A stretch of DNA of 64,000 nt from Promethearchaeota archaeon (GCA_048939995.1 JBHLOY010000001.1:398449-462448); one strand, 5' to 3'; positions 25,227-37,952 are shown, numbered from the stretch's first letter. The notes: a model not told the origin generated them from the sequence alone. Made by a program: numbers and translations.

Positions 25227-26615
25227 TTAATCATTGATCCCCCAGGGAGGAATTGCTATAGCTCCTGTTACAATACTATCTGGATAAAGTACATTTCCAG
25301 ATGATATAACACTTTTTGAACCATCTGGTTTCCATTGACAATATAAAGTAGTACCATATGGCCAACCCACTACTGCATCATGAGCCTTATTCCAACCCAC
25401 GTAACCTGTTGAAACACTGTCTCCAATCCATGGGCTAGCTCTATTAAAGCTTTCGAGATACGTTATTAGCGTTTCAGTCTTAAAACTTCCAGTCGCGTTA
25501 ATGCTAGCAGCTATTGTGTTTACAGCGTCATAGGCTCCTACTGCTGTATATAAAGGTTCATGATCAAATGTAGCTATAAAATCATCCCAGAAGGCTATTG
25601 TTAAGTCAGTTTTATTTGTCCTATGAACAGACTGCATTATCGTTTCATAAGCACAATCTCCGCCAGTATCGTCCCAGAATGTATCTAATTGCGATTGAAC
25701 ATCGATGCCTACTAAAAGACATTGGGGTTGGAGAGCTGCATATTGAGTCATCATGTAAATTCCACCTTGAGCTGAGATTACGGGGATTGTTATTTGTGCA
25801 TTTGCCGCCTCTATTTGATTCCAGTAGGTAGCAAAATCTGTTGCTGTAGCAGTAATGGGATATGCAATGTCAGCTACTATGGTATATCCATATAATGGAA
25901 GGTAAGTATTAAGTGCAGTATCCATTGGAATGGTCCAGTCTAAAGCTTCTCGTAAAACTGCCACCTTGTTTATGGTTTTGTTAAGTACAAGAGGATTTTG
26001 TAAATATGCCTTGAGGAAAGCCATTTGGCCGATTTGTGATCCTCCTAATGCAGATGAATTAATAGGCATAACCCTAAACCAATACTTATATCTATTATAA
26101 CTAGAATACGCTTCTCCGTAAACATTATAGCAGAAATAATCGGTTGATGCTCCAGTTCCAAGAAATAACTTTTTAGCATCCATAACGACTTCTACATACG
26201 CTTTTAAAGCCTCTGTTCTAAATCCTCCTATTATATATTCTGCACCATCTACTTCAATAATTTTTTCTGCTGCACCAACTCCCTTAGTAACGTCAAGTAC
26301 AGGGTTTGATTCATCCGTATCTTCAGCTACGAGCCCTATATAGTAAGTCGTACCATTAACTTGAACTCCGCCACCGGTATTTATATTATAGGCTGCAAGC
26401 CAGGCTCCCTCATAATTTCCCTGTCCTTGTATTTCAGTTATACCTCCAAGTAAACCAATCTTAATTATTCGATTATCTGGTATACCTGAAACTCCCGGAG
26501 TTATAAAAGCAGATGCAGCTGGAGTTAATAAAAACCAGACGCCAACGCCTATACCTGCACCAGCGATAGCTAAGACAGCAACTATGGCTAAGATTCTTTT
26601 CATATTTCGTTCCAT
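25227..26615 (-). CDS. livK: Liv-type ABC substrate-binding protein (N-terminal membrane anchor)
   Basis: IKIGLL, INTGGGV, IGGFRTE, YWFRV, AYDAV; first gene of the liv operon. Confidence 0.85.
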   Translation of the reverse strand: MERNMKRILAIVAVLAIAGAGIGVGVWFLLTPAASAFITPGVSGIPDNRIIKIGLLGGITEIQGQGNYEGAWLAAYNINTGGGVQVNGTTYYIGLVAEDTDESNPVLDVTKGVGAAEKIIEVDGAEYIIGGFRTEALKAYVEVVMDAKKLFLGTGASTDYFCYNVYGEAYSSYNRYKYWFRVMPINSSALGGSQIGQMAFLKAYLQNPLVLNKTINKVAVLREALDWTIPMDTALNTYLPLYGYTIVADIAYPITATATDFATYWNQIEAANAQITIPVISAQGGIYMMTQYAALQPQCLLVGIDVQSQLDTFWDDTGGDCAYETIMQSVHRTNKTDLTIAFWDDFIATFDHEPLYTAVGAYDAVNTIAASINATGSFKTETLITYLESFNRASPWIGDSVSTGYVGWNKAHDAVVGWPYGTTLYCQWKPDGSKSVISSGNVLYPDSIVTGAIAIPPWGIND

Positions 26616-26782
26616 ATTTTAATCACTTTTTAGAAAGTTATTATTTTTAACAAATTTTTATATCTAAATTAGATTTGACAATTAGTATTTCAGATAAACA
26701 TATATTTAAATATTTATAATTGAACTCTGTATTTTTCTATAGACAGTCTAAAAAACAGTTATTAATTTACTAGCTTAGAAGG

Positions 26783-27736
26783 CTATTGATTTATTTTAAA
26801 CAGGTTAAATCCATTAGAAACATGGTCAATTATATCTGATCTTTTGTTAAAAGTCACTTTTAGACCATATACTGATCCTCGGAAATAACTTTCTGCCAGG
26901 ACTAGTATGACACTGCAATGTTCATCAGTTTTTTTAATAATCGGTATTTGTGCCTCCCATTTCGTAAAAAACACATAATTTTTTGCGATATTTATTGCTT
27001 TTTTATAATACTTCATATCTTCAGATGCATTTGATAACTGAGTTTCAAAAATTTTACTATTTTTTTTTGAAAATTGAATTTTCTTTCTTAATCTAAAAAT
27101 GCATAAGTTATCTGAAGAAATTTTTTCATAAATAAAATATCTAAATGGGAATAGACCAGGAATGTAAAGCGCATTAGAAGGCAATTTTGCTTGAATCCAA
27201 ATTTTAGAAATAATGCGATACATGAAATAGAGTAAATAAAATCCAAAAAAGTATTGAAATAGATATGAAAAGAATAGTTGTGGAAAAAAGAAGTATAATA
27301 TTGAATAAAATATTATTACTGTACCTGAGATAAGAGCTAAAACAAAATTAATTGCCCTATCTATAAAAAATCTATACCTTCTTTTCGAGAAGGGATAAAA
27401 AATAGGAATTTTGGACGCTGTCATTAAATCAAGTGAAATATGAAGACTGTAAAAAAGGAATCCGACAACCCAGACAATAACAAAATTTTCATTGGTAATA
27501 AGAGTAAATATACTTGCTGTAAAAAAAGAAAAGATGATTGCAGTAAAATAAGAATGGGATAATCCTTTGTGTGAGAGAAAATTTGATTTTTTAATTAATT
27601 GTAATGGTTCCAAGACAATATCAAAATCAGCAATGATAGCCATAATTATAGCATAGAGAACGATACTAAATGGTAATGAGTTAAGCGTGTAGATACTTAT
27701 AAATATTGCCATTAAAAAGTGTGTGAAAAAATCCAT
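26783..27736 (-). CDS. Membrane metal-dependent hydrolase (YdjM-like)
   Basis: MDFFTH, DFD, HKGLSHS, H..LD, YPF. Confidence 0.8.
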   Translation of the reverse strand: MDFFTHFLMAIFISIYTLNSLPFSIVLYAIIMAIIADFDIVLEPLQLIKKSNFLSHKGLSHSYFTAIIFSFFTASIFTLITNENFVIVWVVGFLFYSLHISLDLMTASKIPIFYPFSKRRYRFFIDRAINFVLALISGTVIIFYSILYFFFPQLFFSYLFQYFFGFYLLYFMYRIISKIWIQAKLPSNALYIPGLFPFRYFIYEKISSDNLCIFRLRKKIQFSKKNSKIFETQLSNASEDMKYYKKAINIAKNYVFFTKWEAQIPIIKKTDEHCSVILVLAESYFRGSVYGLKVTFNKRSDIIDHVSNGFNLFKINQ

Positions 27737-27841
27737 AAAAGCTCGAAGATTTAAATAAGGAATTATTTTTTAAGTTTCAGATTTTAAAATAAAGAGGAAA
27801 GAATTTAAATATTTTTTGCAATAAATTAAGGAGGCAATCCT

Positions 27842-27885
27842 TTTGTCAATCTCTTACTATAATTTTCTAAAAGATTTCATTCAAA
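27842..27885 (-). promoter_or_regulatory. SECIS-like kink-turn hairpin (eukaryote/Loki-type)
   Basis: Minus strand 5'-UUUG AAU GAA AUCUUUUA GAAAAUUAUAG UAAGAGAU UGA CAAA-3': 4-bp stem, 3-nt bulge, tandem G.A/A.G pairs, 8-bp stem and an unpaired apical AAAA. Confidence 0.7.
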
Positions 27886-27888
27886 TTA

Positions 27889-28356
27889 TTATAATTGTTT
27901 GTTAAAATAATGGATAAAATATTTATTCTCTTTACCATATTTTTGGCGCAGTATTGTTTTAAGTGACCCCATATCTAATCGTTCTTTTACTTTTTCTCAT
28001 CAACATCCTACATCTGGTTGTAATTGAATAAAGCTATTAGGATAGATATTGAATTCAATATTTTCCCTAATGGGGTTAAATTTACGTAAAATTCCATCCT
28101 CATCAGGTGCGTAGGCAAATACTCCGACGTCCTCATATATTAAACCTTCCTCTAAATTTACAAATAGTTGAAGATAACTATGAATGTAACTCTCATATAG
28201 TGGAAATATTGAATTCATAGAATCTTCCATTTCAATTTTATCAACCAATGCTAAAGCTTGGATAAATGTTGCGTTATCATTGAGTTCAAGAGAATACTTC
28301 TTACCCTGTTGGAGACCTTTAATTGGTATACTAATTTCAAATTCTACCTTTTTAAT
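27889..28356 (-). CDS. Putative selenoprotein with beta-grasp/MoaD-like fold and Gly-Cys-(Sec)-(Sec) motif; ends at 28000 if UGA is not recoded
   Basis: AGGTGA then ATT (28356) extends the track ORF by 36 codons. Reads ...PDVGC-TGA-TGA-EKVKERLDMGSLKTILRQKYGKENKYFIHYFNKQL-TAA, followed by the SECIS-like hairpin. Confidence 0.6.
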
Positions 28357-28378
28357 CTTTAATTCACCTATCGTATGA

Positions 28379-28648
28379 TTATATTAAGCCTTTTTCTTTA
28401 AGGAGAATGGGTAAATCTTTTTTCAGTAGAAATGCAGCAGTATATTTTCTTTCATTATCTACTACAATTGAGTTTCCATGTAAATTAAGGCTTCTAGCTT
28501 CTTCAGAATTAAGATTTTTTGTGCTATAATCAATATGTTTAATGTAAGGAGTTAAAACAATGAATACACGGTTCATAAACTTATCCCATTCGCAAGCACA
28601 GCTATCTAATGGCACATAAATGTCCACTTTTAATTTGCTATTTTCCAT
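28379..28648 (-). CDS. Small thioredoxin-fold/ArsD-like protein with CxC
   Basis: KVDIYVPLDSCAC resembles the position of the Cys cluster after the first beta strand in ArsD metallochaperones; also supported by gene context. Confidence 0.45.
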   Translation of the reverse strand: MENSKLKVDIYVPLDSCACEWDKFMNRVFIVLTPYIKHIDYSTKNLNSEEARSLNLHGNSIVVDNERKYTAAFLLKKDLPILLKEKGLI

Positions 28649-28659
28649 GGTTTAGATCC

Positions 28660-28965
28660 TTAAGAACAATTACATGATTGGTTTGAATTTTTTACTCTAC
28701 TTCTCACATTCCATAAACATCCACAACCAGGCTGTTCTTGCATAATGATAGCTTGGGTGGGGCAATTTCTCTTACAGGCACTGCACTCAGTACAGAGATT
28801 TTCATTAGTTATTTCATACTTTCCATTTTCATTTGGTTTTGGTAATCCAAAAGGGCAAATCTCTCCACACAACCCACAACCATTACAGATATCTTTATTA
28901 ATAAAGATACGCAGATTCTTCATGATTTGTGTGATATTTAAAGACTTAAAATCTATTTCAGTCAA
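28660..28965 (-). CDS. hgcB: HgcB-like 2x[4Fe-4S] ferredoxin
   Basis: CNGCGLCGEICP and CTECSACKRNCP, then GCGC and C-terminal SCNCS. Directly downstream of the hgcA-like gene. GGAGGTG favours a TTG start at 28965. Confidence 0.7.
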   Translation of the reverse strand: MTEIDFKSLNITQIMKNLRIFINKDICNGCGLCGEICPFGLPKPNENGKYEITNENLCTECSACKRNCPTQAIIMQEQPGCGCLWNVRSRVKNSNQSCNCS

Positions 28966-29010
28966 ACTTAACACCTCCTAATCTACAATATTATTAATTT
29001 TTTATATTAT

Positions 29011-30681
29011 TTAAACAAATATAACTCCAATTGTTAATGAAATCAAGCCTATTATTAAAAAAACCTTATTTAATAAGCTAAATAGGGGATATTCATTTTC
29101 AATTTTTCTTGGGCTTGTTGCCATTGTATAACCACTGGAAGACATAGTGGAAAAAAAAGCAATCCAAAAGAAAAATCCAATATTTATGAGGACATAAAGA
29201 ATTGAACTATGAAGCCACCACGTTAGTAATCCCAAAATACTAATATTAATGAATCCATAGAATATTCCCTTAAATACAAATTTTTGGGTAAAATCTGAAA
29301 GAGGAAACAATAAAAATATAATTAGATTTGTAATTATGACCCAAAGGCAGATTTCCCCAATCCACCAAACCTTATCAAAGTTTGTAAAAATTGCTAGTCC
29401 TAAGAATAGGAAGAATAAAGCGATTATAGGTAAAAGAAACACTTTACGGAAGAGAAATGTAGTGTGGGTTATTACTGCACGCATGCGATGAGACAATTTA
29501 AATTTAGCGAGCTTCATTTTATCTGATTTTTTAGACGGCTTTTCTTTTAAATAGTCTGGTATAAACTTGGACCATACTGGGCCATATTTAACCTTAAATG
29601 GAAATTTTTCGGAACTTTTAGGTAGTTCTGGAATAGCTATTCCGCCAGCAGAAAGTTGAGGAAGCAGAAGTGTTTTTTTATTAGAAATATATTGAATTCC
29701 AGAAGTTTCTACAGCTTCGAGGAGTTGGGAATTACCAAAATTATTTCCGCGAGCCGCACACCATACATTAATCCCATTAGAATCGACACATAATACCCAT
29801 GCGTTGATCTTTTTCAAATCTCGCATAACTTTAATATATGTATAATCATAATTTGCAGTAACAATAATAGGGGAATCTTTATCGGGAGTCCCAGATTCAT
29901 AAATCCCTGGCTCAATAGGAACATGATCCACTTGACCGGTGAAGGTGCAACGGTATATCCTTAATTGAGATTTTATTCCTTTAAATTTTCTCGGTTTAGG
30001 ACGATAATAACCAGGTTCATTTTTTTGATTGACAATTACTTTTTGAAGCTCTAATGCTTGGATAGAGCCATGTTTCCACTTTTTTTGAGTTTTAATTTTG
30101 AATCCGATTGATTCTAGATAATTAAAGAACCATTTAACACGGAAAGTATTTTGTAATCGAAGTCTTCTAATTTTTTTCTTGTACCACCATCTTTTAATAT
30201 TAAAGATTAATCTCCAAAATCCTGAAGGCACAAATTCAGCTCCAATTATTAAACTTCCTTCTGGTTTTAGGACTTTCCATGCATTTCGAAGGAAAATTTG
30301 CTGTTCAAATGGACGTAATTCTGATAACATAAAAGTACTTACTACCACATCCTTAGAAGAATCTTCCATATGTATATCTGAGAAAGTCCCAATTTGATAA
30401 GTTAGTTTCAAATTTTCTTCTTGAGGATAATTCTGCATTGCAAAAGTAATCATCTTAAAATTTTTGTCAATTGCAATAACATTATTACCCTTTAATGCCA
30501 TTTTAGCAGCGAGTACACCTGTACCACATCCAATCTCTAAAACATCTGAAGCATTTACACGATCAAGAATCCATTTCTGGACTTCTTTATTAACTCCCTT
30601 TGTAAGAGTGGTAAATTTTGAATCATATGTATCTGGTTCCTGTTCCAATTTCCTCATATATACGACAGCCATTAAATACAC
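29011..30681 (-). CDS. hgcA: Fusion: SAM methyltransferase + HgcA-like corrinoid domain + transmembrane domain
   Basis: VLEIGCGTG; PGIY..G.PD..SPIIVTANY, DSNGINVWCAARG (cap helix), LLLPQLSAGG, YGPV; about 5 C-terminal TM helices with GYT..TS. Confidence 0.75.
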   Translation of the reverse strand: MYLMAVVYMRKLEQEPDTYDSKFTTLTKGVNKEVQKWILDRVNASDVLEIGCGTGVLAAKMALKGNNVIAIDKNFKMITFAMQNYPQEENLKLTYQIGTFSDIHMEDSSKDVVVSTFMLSELRPFEQQIFLRNAWKVLKPEGSLIIGAEFVPSGFWRLIFNIKRWWYKKKIRRLRLQNTFRVKWFFNYLESIGFKIKTQKKWKHGSIQALELQKVIVNQKNEPGYYRPKPRKFKGIKSQLRIYRCTFTGQVDHVPIEPGIYESGTPDKDSPIIVTANYDYTYIKVMRDLKKINAWVLCVDSNGINVWCAARGNNFGNSQLLEAVETSGIQYISNKKTLLLPQLSAGGIAIPELPKSSEKFPFKVKYGPVWSKFIPDYLKEKPSKKSDKMKLAKFKLSHRMRAVITHTTFLFRKVFLLPIIALFFLFLGLAIFTNFDKVWWIGEICLWVIITNLIIFLLFPLSDFTQKFVFKGIFYGFINISILGLLTWWLHSSILYVLINIGFFFWIAFFSTMSSSGYTMATSPRKIENEYPLFSLLNKVFLIIGLISLTIGVIFV

Positions 30682-30712
30682 CTATTTTCTTGTATTTTAT
30701 AATAAAATAAAC

Positions 30713-31771
30713 CTATTGAGATTTCCAAAAACCTCGTTTTTTTAGATACCTGCCTAAATAAACTATTGAAAGCATTATGGGGACTTCCCAAAATAATCCC
30801 ATAGTAGTCCCCAATGCTGCAATTGAACCAACACCATAGATTGCGATAGCAGTAGCGATTGCAATTTCAAAATGACTTGAAGATCCAATAATTACAGTTA
30901 TTACAGCCTCTTTGTATTTTAATTTAAAAAATTTGGTAATTAGGATATTGTATCCAACAACAATAGCAAAACCAACCAGAAGTGGTATTGAAACCAATAA
31001 TAACAAATCTGGATTAAGTACTAGAACTTGTCCATTTAAAGAAAAAAGCACAGCTAGAGTAGTCAATAGAGCTAAAATAGAAATTTTTCCTACTAGAGGG
31101 CGATAAATATTATTAAACCAATCTATTCCCTTGGAAGAAATAATAAGTCTTTTAGATATAATACCAAGTAATAAAGGAAGCCCAATAAAAATTAATGTTG
31201 AAAATAATAAAAGGATCCAATTTATTGGGATGCTTTGAATACCTGTTAATAACGTTACCATTGGAGCATAACCAAATATTATAGTTATGGTGTTTAAACT
31301 AGTATTAATTACATTCTGTTCTTGATTTCCTCGTGCCATCCAGCCCCATACAAGAACCATCGCTGTACACGGTGAACTAGAGAGTAATATAATAGCGACT
31401 GAAAGTTGTTGATTTCCAGCTAAAAACAAATTAACCATCAGTAACCCTATAAAAGGAGCAACTAACCAATTAGAGATTAATGTTAAAATGATAGGTTTAG
31501 GATTTCTTCCCAATTTCTTTAATTCTGAGGCCTGAATATTTAACATTGCAGGATACATCATCAAAAACAAACAAATCCCAATAGGAACTGAAATTTCCCC
31601 TATTTTTATAGCATCAATTGCTTCACTGATGCCTGGAAAAAATTGCGATAAAAGAATTCCAATAAGAATACATAAAGCAACCCATAGGGGAAGAAATTTC
31701 TCAAAAAAACCAATATCTTTCCCTTTCTCTTTCGAAACTTGTTCTATTCGATTTAATCTTTCTTTTTGCAT
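30713..31771 (-). CDS. acr3: Acr3 family arsenite efflux transporter
   Basis: FFEKFLPLWVALC, LMMYP, NW, PCTAMVLVW, FEIAIATA, EVPIML. Confidence 0.9.
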   Translation of the reverse strand: MQKERLNRIEQVSKEKGKDIGFFEKFLPLWVALCILIGILLSQFFPGISEAIDAIKIGEISVPIGICLFLMMYPAMLNIQASELKKLGRNPKPIILTLISNWLVAPFIGLLMVNLFLAGNQQLSVAIILLSSSPCTAMVLVWGWMARGNQEQNVINTSLNTITIIFGYAPMVTLLTGIQSIPINWILLLFSTLIFIGLPLLLGIISKRLIISSKGIDWFNNIYRPLVGKISILALLTTLAVLFSLNGQVLVLNPDLLLLVSIPLLVGFAIVVGYNILITKFFKLKYKEAVITVIIGSSSHFEIAIATAIAIYGVGSIAALGTTMGLFWEVPIMLSIVYLGRYLKKRGFWKSQ

Positions 31772-31774
31772 AAT

Positions 31775-32530
31775 TTATTGAATAACCTCTTCTAAAATAA
31801 GTGTTGAATCTTTATTCCTTCTTTCATACTCTCTTCTAATGTTTTTAATAAAAGATTTTAAATTATTTGTAAGTTTATTGAAACTTTCCAAGGAGATACC
31901 ATTAAATATTGAGACTAAATGGATAATACCAGCCACTTCCTTATCGCATGTATGACCAAAACGCGGAGCACGGCATTCATAACAAACATTTAAAGCGAAA
32001 TTTTGAAGATTATTTTCCTCAAACTCCTTGTTCAATAGAAAATCTGCTCCTGCCTTTGAAGAACCACATAATGATGATCTTTCTATATCAATTCTATTGA
32101 TAACTCCACTATTATCTATACTGAAATGATAAATTGGACGACCAAAATATGTAGTAAATAAATCAACTTCAGAGATACCCGTATTATTCTCTAATGAACA
32201 CATTGTAGGAGCATAAATAACATTAGGATTCACCTTTCTGGCTTGTAAATATAAACCTATTCCCGGAAGCACTCCTAAAATCACTGGTTTTTGGAGTTCA
32301 ACAAGTTGAGTTATAATGTCAGGATGACGAACATATGAAATGTAAAGGTCACATTCAGGGATGTTTAGATCCAGCTCATCATCTAACATAATATTCGATG
32401 GAATCTCTGGTACAAGTATCCATTTAGTTTCAAACTTTTTTTTTATGTTTTCAAATGCTCTATCCCCATATTTCCCATCAGAAACTACTCCAACCGTTAA
32501 TTTTTCTTTTTTTTCCATTTTATATACCAT
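31775..32530 (-). CDS. DUF166 family protein
   Basis: YGDRA, HPD, MCSL, FGRP, RSSLCGS, YECRA, IH; recognised from memory of the family. Confidence 0.6.
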   Translation of the reverse strand: MVYKMEKKEKLTVGVVSDGKYGDRAFENIKKKFETKWILVPEIPSNIMLDDELDLNIPECDLYISYVRHPDIITQLVELQKPVILGVLPGIGLYLQARKVNPNVIYAPTMCSLENNTGISEVDLFTTYFGRPIYHFSIDNSGVINRIDIERSSLCGSSKAGADFLLNKEFEENNLQNFALNVCYECRAPRFGHTCDKEVAGIIHLVSIFNGISLESFNKLTNNLKSFIKNIRREYERRNKDSTLILEEVIQ

Positions 32531-32659
32531 TCATTATGGTTAGAGCTTAAGGTATAGAAAGAACCATTCAAATAAAAATGTTTCGATGTAAATTGATTTT
32601 TTTCGATTTGGATAAAACTTTTATAATTTAATATCTTTATATATAATATAAATAGATTT

Positions 32660-33064
32660 TTGGTGGTTTTTATCAAGGTTAATCGGAGGACAACAATCAA
32701 AGAAATGCTATGTAGTTGCGAGGAAGGTTCTGATAGTGAAAAGTATTTTAAAAATTTAGAAAAATTAGGAGAAAACCTAAAATTAGATGACAAGATCAAT
32801 TCTACATTAATATTTTTAAATGCTTTAGGAAATAAAGAACGATTAACTATTATTAACGCCTTGAAAGAAAAAGATCGTTGTGTATGTGAATTAGAAGTTA
32901 TTTTAGACAAATCTCAACCTTCCATATCTCATCATCTAAGAGAATTAGAAAAAGCTAACTTGATTCGAGGGTGGAAAAAAGGGAAATTTACATATTATAG
33001 TCTTTTAGAAAATAATTTTAAGGAGCAATTAGAAAATTTCTATCATGAATATAGGCTTGGATAA
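32660..33064 (+). CDS. arsR: ArsR/SmtB family repressor, divergent from the acr3 operon (start uncertain)
   Basis: ALGNKERL.I...CVCEL...SQPSISHHL..L...GKFTYYSL; additional N-terminal CSC. Confidence 0.9.
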   Translation: MVVFIKVNRRTTIKEMLCSCEEGSDSEKYFKNLEKLGENLKLDDKINSTLIFLNALGNKERLTIINALKEKDRCVCELEVILDKSQPSISHHLRELEKANLIRGWKKGKFTYYSLLENNFKEQLENFYHEYRLG

Positions 33065-33232
33065 ATAATCCGTCGATAATCATGGTGTAGAAGGTTGAAA
33101 ATATGATGAATTAAATTCTTTCTTTTTGAATTAGTCATAATTAGACATAATTTCGATGACCTTACATATGAGATTTTTTTGTCGAAATAAGGTTCACCGC
33201 TAAATATTTATGTATAAATTCCCATGTAGATA

Positions 33233-34498
33233 ATGTTTATTATTTTAAGATTGAGATTATTAATGAAGCGTTCAGAAAATGGAGCAAATGAAAAAAAATA
33301 TTATCGGGTAATTCTACCTTCGGATTTTCAAATTGAGAAAGAGGATATTTTTTATCGCGATAAGTATAATGATATTATGAATTATTTTAAAGTTTTACTA
33401 ACTAGTGACGAGTATTCAGAAATTCAACAATATGTACAACCAAAAGGATTAATTCTTCTCAATATCCATCCTAGTACAGATATTTTAGACTTCTTGAGAT
33501 TAATCTCAAAGAATTACTTTTTAGATCTTATAGAGTTAGATTATTTTGAAATTTTGAAATCACCTTTAAAATTTCTTAATAGATTCGATCTAATCTTTCA
33601 AAATATAGTTGATGAGACTAAACATAAAGATGAACTTCAGAATGATTCTAAAAGCTATTTGGATAGCTATGAGAAGATTAAACCAAACAGATTGATATTG
33701 ATAAATGAATCTGAATTGCCAGAAAATTTACTTAATGAGCAAAATTTACTGAATTTCTTCTTAGCTTATTATAAAAGTTACAAACCAGAATATATAAAAA
33801 ATGGAATTATATTAGTATGGTTAAATGAACGCCTAGATGGTATAAATTTAAATTTTGTCTACCAAATTTTCGATCAATTAATTAAAGTTCCCCATTTAAG
33901 CATTGCAGAAAAGGAAGTATATCTAAGGAGCTATTCTGAAAAGAACCCTAGAATTGTATTTGATATAAATACAGTGATCAGTTATACTAAAGATTGGGAA
34001 ATTTTAGATATTAGAAATCTGTTAAAATTAGCCATTTTTAAGCAGTTCCTTAATTTTGAGCTAAATAAAACTTCTAATGAAATAACAGATATTATTATAA
34101 ATTTAATCGATTCAGGCGAATTTAAACCAGCAACTTTTTGCAATAATCAATTAACTCCAGATAAGGATTTAAGCAGAGAATCAATATTTATGAAAAAAGG
34201 CTTCAAAAATAAGGAAATGAACCTTAACGAGTTACAATCTATAATGAATGATATTCAAACTCAACCTATTTCTGAATTCATGTTAAGCCAATTATATGAA
34301 AATGCGGCTTTTAAAAATTATACAGAACTGGTCATAATTATCGATAAATTAAATAAAAACGAAGTACTTGAAGAAAACGAGAGAAGATTACTTGCTAATT
34401 ATCCTTTCATCTTAAATGATCCTCCAAATAGAGCCCAGATTCACTTAGAGAAGGCAAAAAAAAAAGTTGACCATATAAGACAGAGTTTTAGCAGATAA
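33233..34498 (+). CDS. Degenerate (probably inactive) AAA+ ATPase-like protein
   Basis: PKGLILLNIHPSTD at the Walker A position (no GKT); IFDQLIKVPHLS..EKEVYL resembles RFDR..VPLP..E.R..IL; co-oriented with smc. Confidence 0.5.
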   Translation: MFIILRLRLLMKRSENGANEKKYYRVILPSDFQIEKEDIFYRDKYNDIMNYFKVLLTSDEYSEIQQYVQPKGLILLNIHPSTDILDFLRLISKNYFLDLIELDYFEILKSPLKFLNRFDLIFQNIVDETKHKDELQNDSKSYLDSYEKIKPNRLILINESELPENLLNEQNLLNFFLAYYKSYKPEYIKNGIILVWLNERLDGINLNFVYQIFDQLIKVPHLSIAEKEVYLRSYSEKNPRIVFDINTVISYTKDWEILDIRNLLKLAIFKQFLNFELNKTSNEITDIIINLIDSGEFKPATFCNNQLTPDKDLSRESIFMKKGFKNKEMNLNELQSIMNDIQTQPISEFMLSQLYENAAFKNYTELVIIIDKLNKNEVLEENERRLLANYPFILNDPPNRAQIHLEKAKKKVDHIRQSFSR

Positions 34499-34517
34499 AT
34501 AAAGAGGGGTTTCCACG

Positions 34518-37500
34518 ATTTCTATCGAAGCAGAAAGTATTTATTTAAAAAAGGTGATTCTTGAGAACTTCTTGAGTTTTCAAAGAGATGAAATAAATTT
34601 CGAGGATTCCAAATTCGTTATAATAATTGGACCTAATTGGTCGGGAAAAACGTCAATTTTTCAGGCGATTAAATTTGCTCTAGGAAGTAATGAAAGAGAT
34701 GAAAGATATAAAAAATGGTCTGATTTTATAAGGAATGGGCAAGACCATGCGATGGTTGAAGTTCATATACTAAATAATGAAGAATTAATCAAAATAAGGA
34801 GAACGGTGGTTAGAGGACAATCCCCGTTTTTTGAGATTGAAAGAATTACTAGTAAGGGCTTTCAAAGAGTTAATGCAAATGATATACAAGATTTAATTTC
34901 TAATTTAAGTATAAATCCTGATAATCAATTTGCTTTTGTAAGTCAAGGAAAAATTGATGTGATTAAAAGTTTAAAACCCATTGAACTTTGCGCTTTTTTA
35001 GAAGAGGGAATTGGATTGAAAGGGCTTAGGGAAGAAATTTTACTTCAAAAAAGAGGTATTTTTAGTCTAAATAGAGAATTTCAATCTATCTTGAGTCGTC
35101 GAAATACCCTAAATATTAATCTTAATCTTTTACAGCCTAAAATCCAACGCTTAAAAGAAAAACAAAAGCTTCTTGAGAGAAAGAAACGTTTTACAGATGA
35201 GTTATTATATGCAAACAGACAAAAGTTAGAAGATAACATAAGCCATTTAAGAGAAAAATTAAAAGAACAACAAGTATCTATTAGTGAGATCAAAAAGGTT
35301 ACTGAAAATTATCGAACTGTGCTTTCAGAAAAGCAATCAAAACTGAATGAGATTGAAGAAAATATCAACGAGTTTTCAGAGGAGTTAGGTCAATTAACTT
35401 ATAAAAAAAAAAGTCTAATAGAAAAAATTCAAATTTGGGAAAAAGAAAAAGTATTAGCCAAAAAGGAATTAGATGATCTAAATTTAAACGTTTTAAATCT
35501 TGAAAAAATTGTTAAAAATATTGAGAGTCAAAGGAATAAATTAGTCAGTGAGGTTAATTTAATTCAGAAAGAAATTTACTCTTTGAGGGGAAATATTGAC
35601 AAATTAATAAAAGAACAGAATACATTAACAAAAAAATTGAAGCAAAATGAAGATTTTTTAAAGGATTATCATAATTTAACTTCTAAAAAAGGAGATTATA
35701 GCAAGAAGATTGAAGATAATAAAAAACAGATAAAGGATATCAATTCAGAAATCAATGAGATTTTCCAGAGTTTTAAAGATATTGAACATAGATTAGAAAA
35801 GAATAAATGGTTTCTTGAAAATCCTACTTCTGATTTACTTTTACATCTTGATGGGGAAATTAGAAACTACTCCAAAGACCTTTTCGAATTAGGGAAAGAA
35901 TTAACTAATTTGCAATTCAAAAGAACTAACTTATTAGAGAGTTTTAAGAATCTACAAGTCTCCTTAAGAGAGCGAAAAGTGATTTTTCCGTCGAGTATTA
36001 ATATTTTAAAAGAAGAAATTGAAAGAAGGGAGTTAACCAATCAAGTAAAGGGGCCAATAATTGAATTCTTGCAGTATGATGATGAGCTAAGTTATGCAAT
36101 CGAATCGGTTTTGGGCGAAAGATTGTTATATAGTTTCGTTGTTAACGAATGGGATATTTTAAATCTCTTAAATAAAATAAAAAACAAATATAATGCCTAT
36201 TGTAATATTTACATAACTAAGAGTCTTGAAATTCGCCCTTTACCTCAATTTTCTGCTGATAATGTTATTGGTTATTTAGTAGAATTAATAAGAGTAGCTA
36301 ATAATGATAAAGATATTCTAAAAGTTATATATTCTAAAGTAAGGAATTGCTTAGTAGTTAAGGACTACCATTCAGCAATCCAAATCTATAAGAATTATAA
36401 TTTTAGGGGAAAATGTGTGACTTTAAAGGGAGAGCAGTTAATATCTTATAACTATGTATATGAAACTCCTTTTCAAAAGCGTCTAAAGGGTTTACTAAGT
36501 GCTAGTACTTTAAAAGAAAAACTAACTAAATTAGAGACTGAGATAGAAGCTATAAATAAAAGAATTTTTGAGTTAAGAGCTGAATACTCTACGATTGACC
36601 AAAATCAGAAAGATCTATACGAAAGAAAAGAATCATTTAACGATTTACTATATAACTTTAATCAAAAGCAGAGATTGACCTCAAAAAAGAATCAACTCTA
36701 TGAGCTTACGCATAATCTTGAGAATGATATTTTAGAACTCCAAAATAAAATCATTGAAATAGAGAACCAGATTCAGATTCTAGAGTCCCAGAGAGATCCG
36801 GAGATTTTTAAATTAAATGACAGAATTGAAGAGATACCGGACGAATTACATCTCTACAATGAAGATTTAAAAAAATGGGATAAAAAATTGAATTCTAATA
36901 TGCAACAGGAACAAGAGATCAATGAAAAACAAGCAACTCAAAAAAAAAAATTGATGGATTTAAAACAAGATTATGATATGAAAAAGCAAAAGTTTCAAAA
37001 CTCAGATAAGAAAGCTTTTTCAATATATAAGAAGCTGGAATCAATTGAGGATGAAATAGATGAAATAGAAAATAATATCTCAAAATCAAAGGACCAAAAG
37101 TTAGAGATCCAACAAGAAAAAACAGAAGTTGAAAAGGAACACATAGAGATAAAAATAAAACTAGAACAAGAATTACTAAAAAAAGTTGGCATTGAACAAG
37201 AGTTATCATCTAATGAAAAAGATTTAGAAAGAATAAATTCTGAGATAAGTGTTTTGGTATCTAATAAGGAAATTAAAATACGTCCTATTAATGATATTAG
37301 AGAAGATATTCTAATAATAGATAAAACCCTGTTAAAATATTTAGATGTGGATGACTCGATCCTAATTGAAAAGGCTCAAATACTATCCAGTATGAAAGAG
37401 ATTGCGAAACATCAAAAAAGTCTAGAAAAAGATATAAAATCGGCTATTAAAACCGAGAATAAACTGGAAGAAACATATTTTAATAAATTTAAGGGAACTT

Positions 37501-37952
37501 TAAATGATTTGGAATTAAAAATCAACCAAAAATTTGAATCTGCTAATATAAAATCCTATTGTTCCCTTAATTTAATCGGCAATTTTGAAGATTTAGGAAT
37601 AGATATTAAGGCTGCAACTACAAAAGAACAATTAAAATCTTTTAAGGCACTTAGCGGAGGTCAAATTTCAATGATTTCAATTTGCCTAATTCTTTCACTT
37701 CAGGAAATTAAACCATCACCGCTTTGTATGTTTGATGAGGCAGGTATGTTTTTAGATGACAAAAATTCAGAAGCATCCTATCAAATGATTAAGGCTACAC
37801 TTGAGCAAAATCCAGTACAACTACTCATGTTTTTACCCAAGTCGTCAAACAATTTATATTTATTAGCTGATAAGTTAATTGGAGTAGCGAGGATTGGTAA
37901 AAAAGAAGTTTCTACAATTTTTAAACCAAAAATTTTAAAAGAAAAAATATGA
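34518..37952 (+). CDS. smc: SMC family ATPase, Smc5/6-like (probable ATT start at 34518)
   Basis: YLKKVILENFLSF, GPNWSGKTS, NQFAFVSQGKI, hinge GPIIE...AIESVLG, long coiled coils, LSGGQ, PLCMFDEAGMFLD, QLLMFLPK. Confidence 0.9.
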   Translation: MSIEAESIYLKKVILENFLSFQRDEINFEDSKFVIIIGPNWSGKTSIFQAIKFALGSNERDERYKKWSDFIRNGQDHAMVEVHILNNEELIKIRRTVVRGQSPFFEIERITSKGFQRVNANDIQDLISNLSINPDNQFAFVSQGKIDVIKSLKPIELCAFLEEGIGLKGLREEILLQKRGIFSLNREFQSILSRRNTLNINLNLLQPKIQRLKEKQKLLERKKRFTDELLYANRQKLEDNISHLREKLKEQQVSISEIKKVTENYRTVLSEKQSKLNEIEENINEFSEELGQLTYKKKSLIEKIQIWEKEKVLAKKELDDLNLNVLNLEKIVKNIESQRNKLVSEVNLIQKEIYSLRGNIDKLIKEQNTLTKKLKQNEDFLKDYHNLTSKKGDYSKKIEDNKKQIKDINSEINEIFQSFKDIEHRLEKNKWFLENPTSDLLLHLDGEIRNYSKDLFELGKELTNLQFKRTNLLESFKNLQVSLRERKVIFPSSINILKEEIERRELTNQVKGPIIEFLQYDDELSYAIESVLGERLLYSFVVNEWDILNLLNKIKNKYNAYCNIYITKSLEIRPLPQFSADNVIGYLVELIRVANNDKDILKVIYSKVRNCLVVKDYHSAIQIYKNYNFRGKCVTLKGEQLISYNYVYETPFQKRLKGLLSASTLKEKLTKLETEIEAINKRIFELRAEYSTIDQNQKDLYERKESFNDLLYNFNQKQRLTSKKNQLYELTHNLENDILELQNKIIEIENQIQILESQRDPEIFKLNDRIEEIPDELHLYNEDLKKWDKKLNSNMQQEQEINEKQATQKKKLMDLKQDYDMKKQKFQNSDKKAFSIYKKLESIEDEIDEIENNISKSKDQKLEIQQEKTEVEKEHIEIKIKLEQELLKKVGIEQELSSNEKDLERINSEISVLVSNKEIKIRPINDIREDILIIDKTLLKYLDVDDSILIEKAQILSSMKEIAKHQKSLEKDIKSAIKTENKLEETYFNKFKGTLNDLELKINQKFESANIKSYCSLNLIGNFEDLGIDIKAATTKEQLKSFKALSGGQISMISICLILSLQEIKPSPLCMFDEAGMFLDDKNSEASYQMIKATLEQNPVQLLMFLPKSSNNLYLLADKLIGVARIGKKEVSTIFKPKILKEKI

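Follow-up and report, generated by a model that had tools for sequence, protein, structure and literature searches.

In Pseudodesulfovibrio mercurii ND132, the genes of the mercury methylation pair HgcA/HgcB are under ArsR control and show an arsenic response or phenotype (10.1101/2022.10.17.512643), and ars genes close to hgcAB have also been noted (PMC10349881). The frequent linkage of hgcAB to arsR and arsenic genes, which a preliminary description of the DNA studied here had pointed to, is thus borne out by the literature. Asgard sequences have been placed in the subtree of fused HgcAB proteins (PMC10083202), and the only fused HgcAB-like protein tested, from P. furiosus, showed no Hg methylation, according to the passage in which PMC10083202 cites that work. 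Here, we describe a locus at positions 27842-33064 of a 64,000-nucleotide stretch (the window) from a Promethearchaeota archaeon (GCA_048939995.1, JBHLOY010000001.1:398449-462448), in which ArsR and the arsenite permease Acr3 are encoded together with a fusion of a CpaM-like methyltransferase and an HgcA-like protein, an HgcB-like ferredoxin, and a protein with two adjacent selenocysteines (Sec). Our literature search found no paper describing CpaM or this operon.

The host is an Asgard archaeon of Loki type with a genome of ~3.75 Mb (98% complete), and the best protein matches of the locus are labelled Promethearchaeota, Hodarchaeota or Hermodarchaeota. Six open reading frames (ORFs) lie co-directionally on the minus strand, and arsR is divergent on the plus strand. 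Counted from the divergent promoter, the order is DUF166, acr3, the CpaM-like::HgcA-like fusion, the HgcB-like ferredoxin, a small protein with a C-x-C motif (the CxC protein), the Sec-Sec protein, and a Sec insertion sequence (SECIS), the gaps between the six genes being 3, 31 (40 from the ATG at 30672), 36, 11 and 22 nt. Gene calls and Pfam and NCBIfam profile scores confirmed the gene identities and the layout proposed in the preliminary description, namely a CVC-type arsR divergent from a six-gene operon with short intergenic gaps (3-40 nt as measured) whose products all carry Cys motifs. No ArsC, ArsD or ArsA was found in the operon by gene calls and profile searches. We read the locus as an arsenic-handling operon of three modules that may include a metalloid-methylating corrinoid relay, and give this reading a probability of about one half.

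Arsenic genes and recombining modules

The regulator (32660..33064, plus strand) scored 55.5 bits with the helix-turn-helix (HTH) family HTH_5 (PF01022) and 74.3 bits with NF033788 (cut-off 55), which places it among the ArsR/SmtB metalloregulators. It has a CVC site in helix 3, within RCVCELE, and a CSC in the N-terminal arm; the CVC is kept in every Asgard homologue adjoining these operons, and RCVCELE is conserved in all homologues. By the HTH and helix-3 CVC criteria, the protein appears to be a sensor of the As(III) type, and a response to As(III) is predicted. In an alignment of seven homologous intergenic regions, the divergent promoter and likely operator region (32531..32659) shows A/T-rich TATA-like boxes on either side of a conserved block with two ATCGA repeats. 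The permease gene (30713..31771, minus strand) encodes an ACR3-family protein that scored 121.6 bits with PF01758 and 270.4 bits with TIGR00832, by far its best family, over positions 2-325 of 327 and just below the cut-off of 282.8.

Gene neighbourhoods were compared around 40 Sec-Sec genes from 39 genomes, and phylum-wide counts were made over 400 Asgard genomes. The full set, consisting of ArsR, Acr3, the fusion, the HgcB-like protein, CxC and Sec-Sec, with or without DUF166, was present in 16 of the 40 loci; the closest genera keep the arrangement in full. A further 14 loci hold ArsR-Acr3 with Sec-Sec, in some cases with CxC in between, and no HgcAB-like genes. About six of the 40 Sec-Sec genes stand alone or elsewhere, beside MsrB, a TPMT/MduS-like methyltransferase with an ArsR-like gene, or a major facilitator superfamily (MFS) transporter. 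The fusion gene was found in 160 of the 400 genomes, including families without any Sec-Sec gene, and, as judged by eye, ~40 of the ~84 genomes with both genes have a Sec-Sec copy, of either of its two subfamilies, at most 2 kb after the HgcAB-like pair. Fusions from Loki-type genomes are 56-68% identical and those from Thor-type genomes ~30%; some also occur in Chloroflexota and other bacteria. The Thor-type fusions have a co-directional CVC ArsR just upstream and no Acr3 at the locus. Where the HgcAB-like pair lies away from Acr3, it is accompanied by MarR or ArsR and otherwise by unrelated neighbours.

The locus is therefore composed of three recombining modules: ArsR-Acr3, the CpaM::HgcA-like fusion with the HgcB-like ferredoxin, and CxC with Sec-Sec. 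Since these modules recombine, the view of the preliminary description that all six genes form a single pathway is only partly supported; the 16 complete loci speak for it, but the modules also occur apart and DUF166 is confined to one sub-lineage. In the same way, conservation of the operon across Asgard archaea holds for the closest genera and fails in the 14 loci that lack HgcAB-like genes.

The position beside acr3 gives the corrinoid module an arsenic context. In a genus of the same family (L115), the gene between acr3 and the Sec-Sec gene encodes a true ArsM (NF008823 at 357 bits, cut-off 263) with a CxC domain fused at its C-terminus. A CxC profile search returned a second ArsM::CxC fusion (P0190), and other CxC members have N-terminal extensions with CC-x-CC motifs that resemble the N-terminus of the L115 protein. 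At a further locus (L114), another class I methyltransferase stands in the slot between acr3 and CxC/Sec-Sec. The slot is thus repeatedly filled by a methylase, and in the window lineage it is occupied by the HgcAB-like module, so that the locus offers an arsenic-linked, testable role for HgcAB-type enzymes.

The first operon gene (31775..32530, minus strand) encodes a Cys-rich DUF166 protein (PF02593 at 97 bits). Its assignment to DfsP, the selenoprotein form, was rejected at 43 bits against a cut-off of 200. DUF166 lies within the operon in six of the 40 loci, all from one sub-lineage, and elsewhere sits in a DGC/GcvH/ferredoxin cluster. In these other genera (L120:2980-7411, and similarly L103, L104, L110 and L122), a small operon led by a second CVC ArsR-like gene encodes the CxC protein and a DGC-domain protein. 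Divergent from it lies the thiol-rich redox cluster in which DUF166 resides when outside the acr3 operon, together with a ferredoxin, a DGC-GcvH fusion and two DGC proteins. The carbon monoxide dehydrogenase/acetyl-CoA synthase (CODH/ACS) complex contains CdhD/E, corrinoid paralogues of HgcA. DUF166 is required for corrinoid-dependent CODH/ACS autotrophy in M. maripaludis (10.1101/2024.03.05.583561), and the present locus gives it a second corrinoid-protein context.

The HgcA-like fusion and its ferredoxin

The fusion gene (29011..30681, minus strand; likely start at the ATG at 30672) encodes 556 aa, and its domains were assigned from Pfam and NCBIfam scores. Residues ~6-213 form a CpaM-like class I S-adenosylmethionine (SAM) methyltransferase (NF043040 at 147.6 bits, cut-off 180). 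Residues 253-550 matched both HgcAB_like (NF043039 at 173.5 bits, cut-off 285) and HgcA (NF040863 at 163.3 bits, cut-off 275); within the fusion, residues ~245-382 are a corrinoid domain of the CdhD type (PF03599 at 50.2 bits, above the cut-off of 24.8), and the C-terminus is a membrane domain. More than 600 homologues were found, and in the 12 Asgard homologues that were aligned the Cys of the cap helix, GINVWCAARGN, is invariant. The helix departs from the HgcA cap-helix motif N(V/I)WCA(A/G)GK: it retains the Cys and lacks the terminal GK, NVWCAARGN being invariant in the same 12 sequences. In a quick tree of HgcA-type proteins, for which support was from the Shimodaira-Hasegawa-like approximate likelihood ratio test (SH-aLRT) only, the 38 true HgcA rows formed one clade (99%) and the Loki and Thor fusions a separate one (96%), with the canonical HgcAB-like fusions and the Chloroflexota fusions outside both. 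Because of the altered cap helix, the scores far below the cut-offs and the separate clade, the protein is, judging from its sequence, a distinct paralogous lineage of the HgcA/HgcAB-like family and not HgcA proper.

The next gene (28660..28974, minus strand) encodes an HgcB-like 2x[4Fe-4S] ferredoxin (NF040864 at 54.6 bits, cut-off 99) with both cluster motifs and a GCGC after the second; it ends in SCNCS, as compared with CCG in most relatives. Eighty loci with the fusion protein were found, and in nearly all that were sufficiently long the HgcB-like gene directly follows. The methyltransferase, HgcA-like and HgcB-like domains are thus encoded together and adjacent, in a fusion pattern that differs from that of the CpaM + HgcAB-like system. 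The canonical form of that system is present in the same genome (contig C14; L003:736-2532), where the gene for an unfused CpaM (254 bits) precedes that for an HgcAB-like fusion (361 bits), both proteins scoring above their cut-offs. This organism therefore has two paralogous HgcA-type systems. Bacterial fusions of the methyltransferase and HgcA-like domains were observed in Desulfobacteraceae (L035 and L049) and Chloroflexota (L031-L047), and some of their ORFs, at 593-629 aa, are long enough for a triple fusion including the ferredoxin; with the window proteins as queries, no ArsR or Acr3 was detected beside them.

The CxC and Sec-Sec proteins

The CxC protein (28379..28648, minus strand; 89 aa) had no Pfam or NCBIfam match at E values up to 10. 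Its AlphaFold2 model, with a predicted local distance difference test score (pLDDT) of 94.5, matched a minimal thioredoxin fold at template modelling (TM) scores of 0.58-0.64 and probabilities of 0.97-1.0, with the motif at the start of helix 1. This motif is an invariant C-x-C and not the CxxC of thioredoxin. An atlas look-up placed the protein near Thioredoxin_3 proteins at scores below 0.9, which we treat as a lead only. The family is small, with 74 clusters in an exhaustive profile search. A relation to ArsD was considered and rejected, as there was no sequence match and ArsD was absent among the fold matches listed.

The sixth ORF (27889..28356, minus strand) reads GC-TGA-TGA, followed by 35 sense codons open to a TAA at 27891-27889, and would encode a protein of 155 aa with Cys117-Sec118-Sec119. 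In the four relatives fetched first, both the TGA pair and the downstream peptide are conserved, and all 51 copies in the fetched loci have the two adjacent TGA codons (28000..28005 here, minus strand), reading UU, and share the conserved tail. A six-frame search found the gene in 131 of the 400 Asgard genomes, including 117 of the 134 from the family of the window, and nearly every full-length match had exactly two TGAs, a few having three. The copies fall into two subfamilies, D-x-G-C-U-U-E-K-V and V-H-A-D-U-U-A-D. Over the 31 codons after UU, the differences per site at codon positions 1/2/3 were 0.257/0.163/0.446, a pattern near-identical to that of the 30 codons before it (0.279/0.174/0.473), and across 40 sequences the tail had one stop in frame versus 99 and 146 in the other two frames. 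The coding-like codon-position pattern and the near absence of in-frame stops indicate that the tail is translated. Full-length database entries carry WW at the Sec positions, which we attribute to a gene caller that rendered TGA as Trp. These data argue strongly for a selenoprotein gene, as the preliminary description had tentatively proposed.

A third in-frame TGA was seen in some copies (L020:10394-10846 and L099, and several genome matches), in L020 in place of the Gly of RLDIG in the tail; this may represent an additional Sec, an error or a pseudogene. The host also has a second Sec-Sec copy, of the HAD-UU-AD subfamily and with its own SECIS, on contig C16 (9381-9860; L130), away from any arsenic gene; its neighbours encode an Rce1-like protease and an MFS transporter. 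The start of the gene is also unusual. There is no ATG, GTG or TTG at the conserved start of the family; the aligned codon, and likely start, is ATT (28354-28356, minus strand), as in ~27 of 46 copies, the rest having ATA, ATG, GTN or TTA. Some copies have a stop codon one or two codons upstream of this point, and in the window an AGGTGA precedes the ATT by 7 nt. The prevalence of ATT, the nearby upstream stops and the AGGTGA suggest that initiation in this family may regularly occur at non-AUG codons.

Immediately downstream is a SECIS of the Asgard/eukaryote type (27845..27880, minus strand), which begins 8 nt past the stop codon and lies 115-143 nt after the first TGA. A 9-bp stem and an A-rich loop of 11 nt stand between its ATGA (27880-27877) and the GA (27847-27846) of its GAC, in agreement with the left edge of the locus at 27842. 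The same plan of ATGA, helix, A-rich loop and [G/A]AC was found in 48 of the 50 copies with downstream sequence, the two exceptions being upstream members of tandem pairs; one more copy (L012) runs off its contig. Among 45 distinct sequences, 91% of cells were paired, as compared with 45-52% when the partners were slid; ten of 15 pairs changed on both sides, no shuffle reached the observed covariation score, RNAalifold independently predicted the same helix, and the core did not vary at any base. The type I Asgard SECIS model (PMC11227280) fits the element plan of both the Sec-Sec genes and the FlpD genes of the host. The host has four FlpD/VhuD genes with two TGAs each, and their elements consist of ATGA, a stem of 8-9 bp, a loop of 11-13 nt starting with A's, and GAC or GAG. 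The SECIS that the preliminary description placed after the sixth gene is therefore supported by covariation and by its match to these elements. An Rfam scan of 26500-34000 with E values up to 10 returned no SECIS family, only chance snoRNA-like matches, and a covariance model built from the 45 copies found only the two Sec-Sec copies in the host genome. Since this model was too sequence-specific for other SECIS, the FlpD elements were compared by pattern scan. A second conserved hairpin followed by a T-rich run (27827..27843, minus strand), with four of six pairs changed on both sides, is probably the transcript end. The host further encodes SelD with one in-frame TGA, SepSecS (374 bits) and PSTK (133 bits).

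The Sec-Sec protein likewise had no Pfam or NCBIfam match (E up to 10). In an AlphaFold2 model built from 42 homologues (pLDDT 92.9), residues 1 to ~117 form a beta-grasp domain that matched SAMP1 (Z 7.1, root-mean-square deviation 3.2, 84 residues aligned), CysO (Z 6.9) and MoaD (Z 6.0); Foldseek agreed (probability 0.97-0.99) with weak E-values. Cys-Sec-Sec sits where such carriers end in Gly-Gly, and a conserved 35-aa tail of two helices then follows. Transcobalamin-type beta domains gave Z scores of 6.4-6.8. Cobalamin binding was considered on this account and not adopted; the beta domains of transcobalamin and intrinsic factor tie with the sulfur carriers, and the role was set aside because many Sec-Sec loci are without any corrinoid gene. 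A 2026 review counted 11 archaeal selenoprotein families, this one not among them (PMC13188914), and a survey of the Asgard selenoproteome searched only by homology to known families (PMC11227280). The Sec-Sec beta-grasp family is thus widespread in Loki-type Asgard archaea and absent from Pfam, NCBIfam and homology-based Asgard selenoproteome surveys, and adjacent selenocysteines on the arm of a ubiquitin-fold carrier would represent unusual chemistry.

Outside the locus coordinates, a YdjM-family membrane protein (26783..27736, minus strand; PF04307 at 64 bits) is a possible extra member. In 23 of the 40 loci its gene adjoins that of the Sec-Sec protein, and it may belong to the system. Two Sec-Sec paralogues on the same strand flank the gene in L112, L114 and L117. 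On the other side, beyond arsR (33233-37952, plus strand), are genes for a conserved 421-aa protein without a Pfam match and a 1132-aa ATPase resembling structural maintenance of chromosomes (SMC) proteins; the former is syntenic with arsR in many relatives, and no tie to the operon was found.

Proposed function and comparison with known systems

We propose the following scheme. ArsR most likely keeps the divergent operon repressed as long as no As(III) is bound, and Acr3, by its family assignment, would export As(III). The CxC and Cys-Sec-Sec proteins would most likely act on As(III) or methylarsenite as a soft-ligand pair, binding or reducing it and passing it on, a role suggested by operon linkage to Acr3, the CxC-ArsM fusion and vicinal-selenol chemistry. 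By analogy with HgcAB, the HgcA-like corrinoid domain would receive, at Co(I), a methyl group that the CpaM-like domain takes from SAM, with the HgcB-like ferredoxin holding the cobalt in its reduced state. At the membrane, the Cys-capped methyl-corrinoid would then give its methyl group to a soft metal or metalloid, for which As(III), or a congener such as Sb, is the most likely candidate. DUF166 might conceivably be an accessory factor of the corrinoid protein.

For the corrinoid module, methylation of arsenic or a related metalloid would be the most economical hypothesis and is our best guess. The narrower proposal, in which the CpaM::HgcA-like and HgcB-like pair is a SAM-fed corrinoid arsenite/antimonite methylase working with the Sec-Sec beta-grasp carrier, we offer only tentatively and hold to be rather doubtful. 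If it is true, this would be a second biological route of arsenic methylation, independent of ArsM, and a direct clue that methylation of metalloids, not of mercury, is the native job of the HgcAB lineage. The locus in any case bears on the native role of HgcAB-type enzymes beyond methylmercury, as it places a close but distinct relative with its own methyl-loading domain in an operon that points to arsenic.

Several observations weigh against the proposed scheme. The argument from ArsM in the slot comes from one fetched locus and one database protein. A separate bona fide ArsM (341 bits) is encoded on contig C38 of the host genome; strict displacement of ArsM by the HgcAB-like module is thereby ruled out, and, because this ArsM and the canonical pair on C14 are both present, the module is neither the sole methylase nor a clean replacement. 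In about half of the genomes with both genes, the HgcAB-like pair lies away from Acr3 and the Sec-Sec gene, in some with a MarR neighbour. As(III) is methylated oxidatively by transfer of a methyl cation, whereas the group that HgcA donates is probably a carbanion or radical, so that the corrinoid chemistry would differ from that of ArsM. On the selenoprotein side, no homologue with Cys in place of Sec was found among the Sec-Sec homologues, and no tRNA-Sec was recovered by Rfam (best 74-nt match 33.5 bits, cut-off 47) or by ARAGORN with or without introns, although the recall of ARAGORN looks poor here, as it listed only 20 tRNA genes in the whole assembly.

One alternative concerns the CxC/Sec-Sec module. 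The two proteins may be a redox couple and not a carrier, serving as an arsenate or methylarsenate reductase or as the reductant of the methylase cysteines, and so taking the place of ArsC or thioredoxin in classical ars operons. The catalytic cycle of ArsM needs a thiol reductant. The lack of ArsC in the operon, the thioredoxin fold with CxC at the active-site position and the fusion of a CxC domain to the C-terminus of ArsM are consistent with such a couple, and bacterial fusions of ArsM with selenoprotein redox domains are recognized as NCBIfam NF041536 and NF041537. We nevertheless consider it a somewhat unlikely account, since ArsC candidates of the low-molecular-weight phosphatase (LMWP) type exist elsewhere in the host genome and a beta-grasp with reactive residues on its C-terminal arm is typical of carriers; it covers this module only and is compatible with the proposed scheme.

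Another explanation is that the locus is a mosaic of independent soft-metal modules under one regulator, with Acr3, CxC and Sec-Sec for arsenic, DUF166 incidental, and a corrinoid module directed at Sb, Se, Te, Bi, a thiol or selenol, or an organic acceptor. Every module does occur without the others, DUF166 belongs to a different redox cluster in other genera, Sec-Sec paralogues stand beside MsrB, TPMT/MduS-like methyltransferases or MFS transporters, and the host already has ArsM. However, the HgcAB-like pair lies directly upstream of CxC and Sec-Sec in ~40 genomes from several genera and with either paralogue type, a relative has a CxC-fused ArsM in the same slot, and even the pair of Thor-type genomes, where Acr3 is missing from the locus, comes with an ArsR of the CVC type, all of which make a mosaic of this kind unlikely. 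A genuine mercury methylase formed by the fusion and the HgcB-like protein, with ArsR and Acr3 only sharing a regulator as in ND132, is improbable: the cap-helix Cys, the membrane domain, the HgcB-type GCGC and the C-terminal Cys pair are all kept, the quick tree puts the Asgard clade closer to true HgcA than to the canonical HgcAB-like fusions, and ArsR linkage is typical of true hgcAB too, but the fusion falls outside the true-HgcA clade (99% support) at 163 bits against 275, has NVWCAARGN and not N(V/I)WCA(A/G)GK, carries a SAM methyltransferase domain that true HgcA lacks, and is embedded between acr3 and arsenic-linked genes, and the P. furiosus protein, the sole fused one tested, was without Hg methylation in the citing passage mentioned above.

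The reading as an arsenic-handling operon with a possible corrinoid methylation relay can be set against the systems known so far. Like HgcA/HgcB (NF040863, NF040864), the window pair has a CdhD-type corrinoid domain, a Cys-bearing cap helix, a C-terminal membrane domain, a neighbouring gene for a 2x[4Fe-4S] ferredoxin in which the second cluster motif is followed by a further Cys and the C-terminus carries cysteines, and the ArsR neighbour that is frequent there. It differs in scoring below both cut-offs (163 of 275 and 55 of 99 bits), in its separate clade and NVWCAARGN cap helix, in the N-terminal SAM methyltransferase, in a ferredoxin that ends in C-x-C and not CC, and in its place within an acr3 operon. 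With the CpaM + HgcAB-like system it shares a class I methyltransferase, an HgcA-like corrinoid protein and an HgcB-like ferredoxin. In the window, however, HgcA is joined to the methyltransferase and HgcB is a separate protein, whereas in the canonical system CpaM is free and HgcA is fused to HgcB, and the window scores are below the cut-offs (148 of 180 and 174 of 285 bits). Since a canonical pair that passes these cut-offs exists elsewhere in the same genome, the window module represents a diverged paralogous system.

Classical ars operons, in which arsR-acr3 is combined with arsC, arsD or arsM, resemble the locus in the divergent CVC ArsR and the ACR3 permease, and a relative has ArsM within the operon; in the window, CxC, Sec-Sec and the corrinoid module stand in place of ArsC, ArsD and ArsA. 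The modelled Sec-Sec protein shares with the carriers MoaD, ThiS, SAMP and CysO its fold (Z 6-7, ~81-84 residues aligned) and the position of the reactive residues where the C-terminal arm leaves the fold. In contrast to these carriers, it has no Gly-Gly end but Gly-Cys-Sec-Sec (Ala-Asp-Sec-Sec in the second subfamily) and a helical tail of ~35 aa, without an E1-like partner seen near its gene or a sequence-level match in Pfam or NCBIfam. Finally, the bacterial organometallic selenoproteins (ArsM/AhpD, ArsM/DUF2284, MbdU and Sec-HgcA; PMC13188914) likewise have Sec recruited in methylation contexts related to arsenic or mercury, whereas the genes described here are archaeal, belong to other folds and families, and combine a eukaryote-like SECIS with two adjacent Sec residues.

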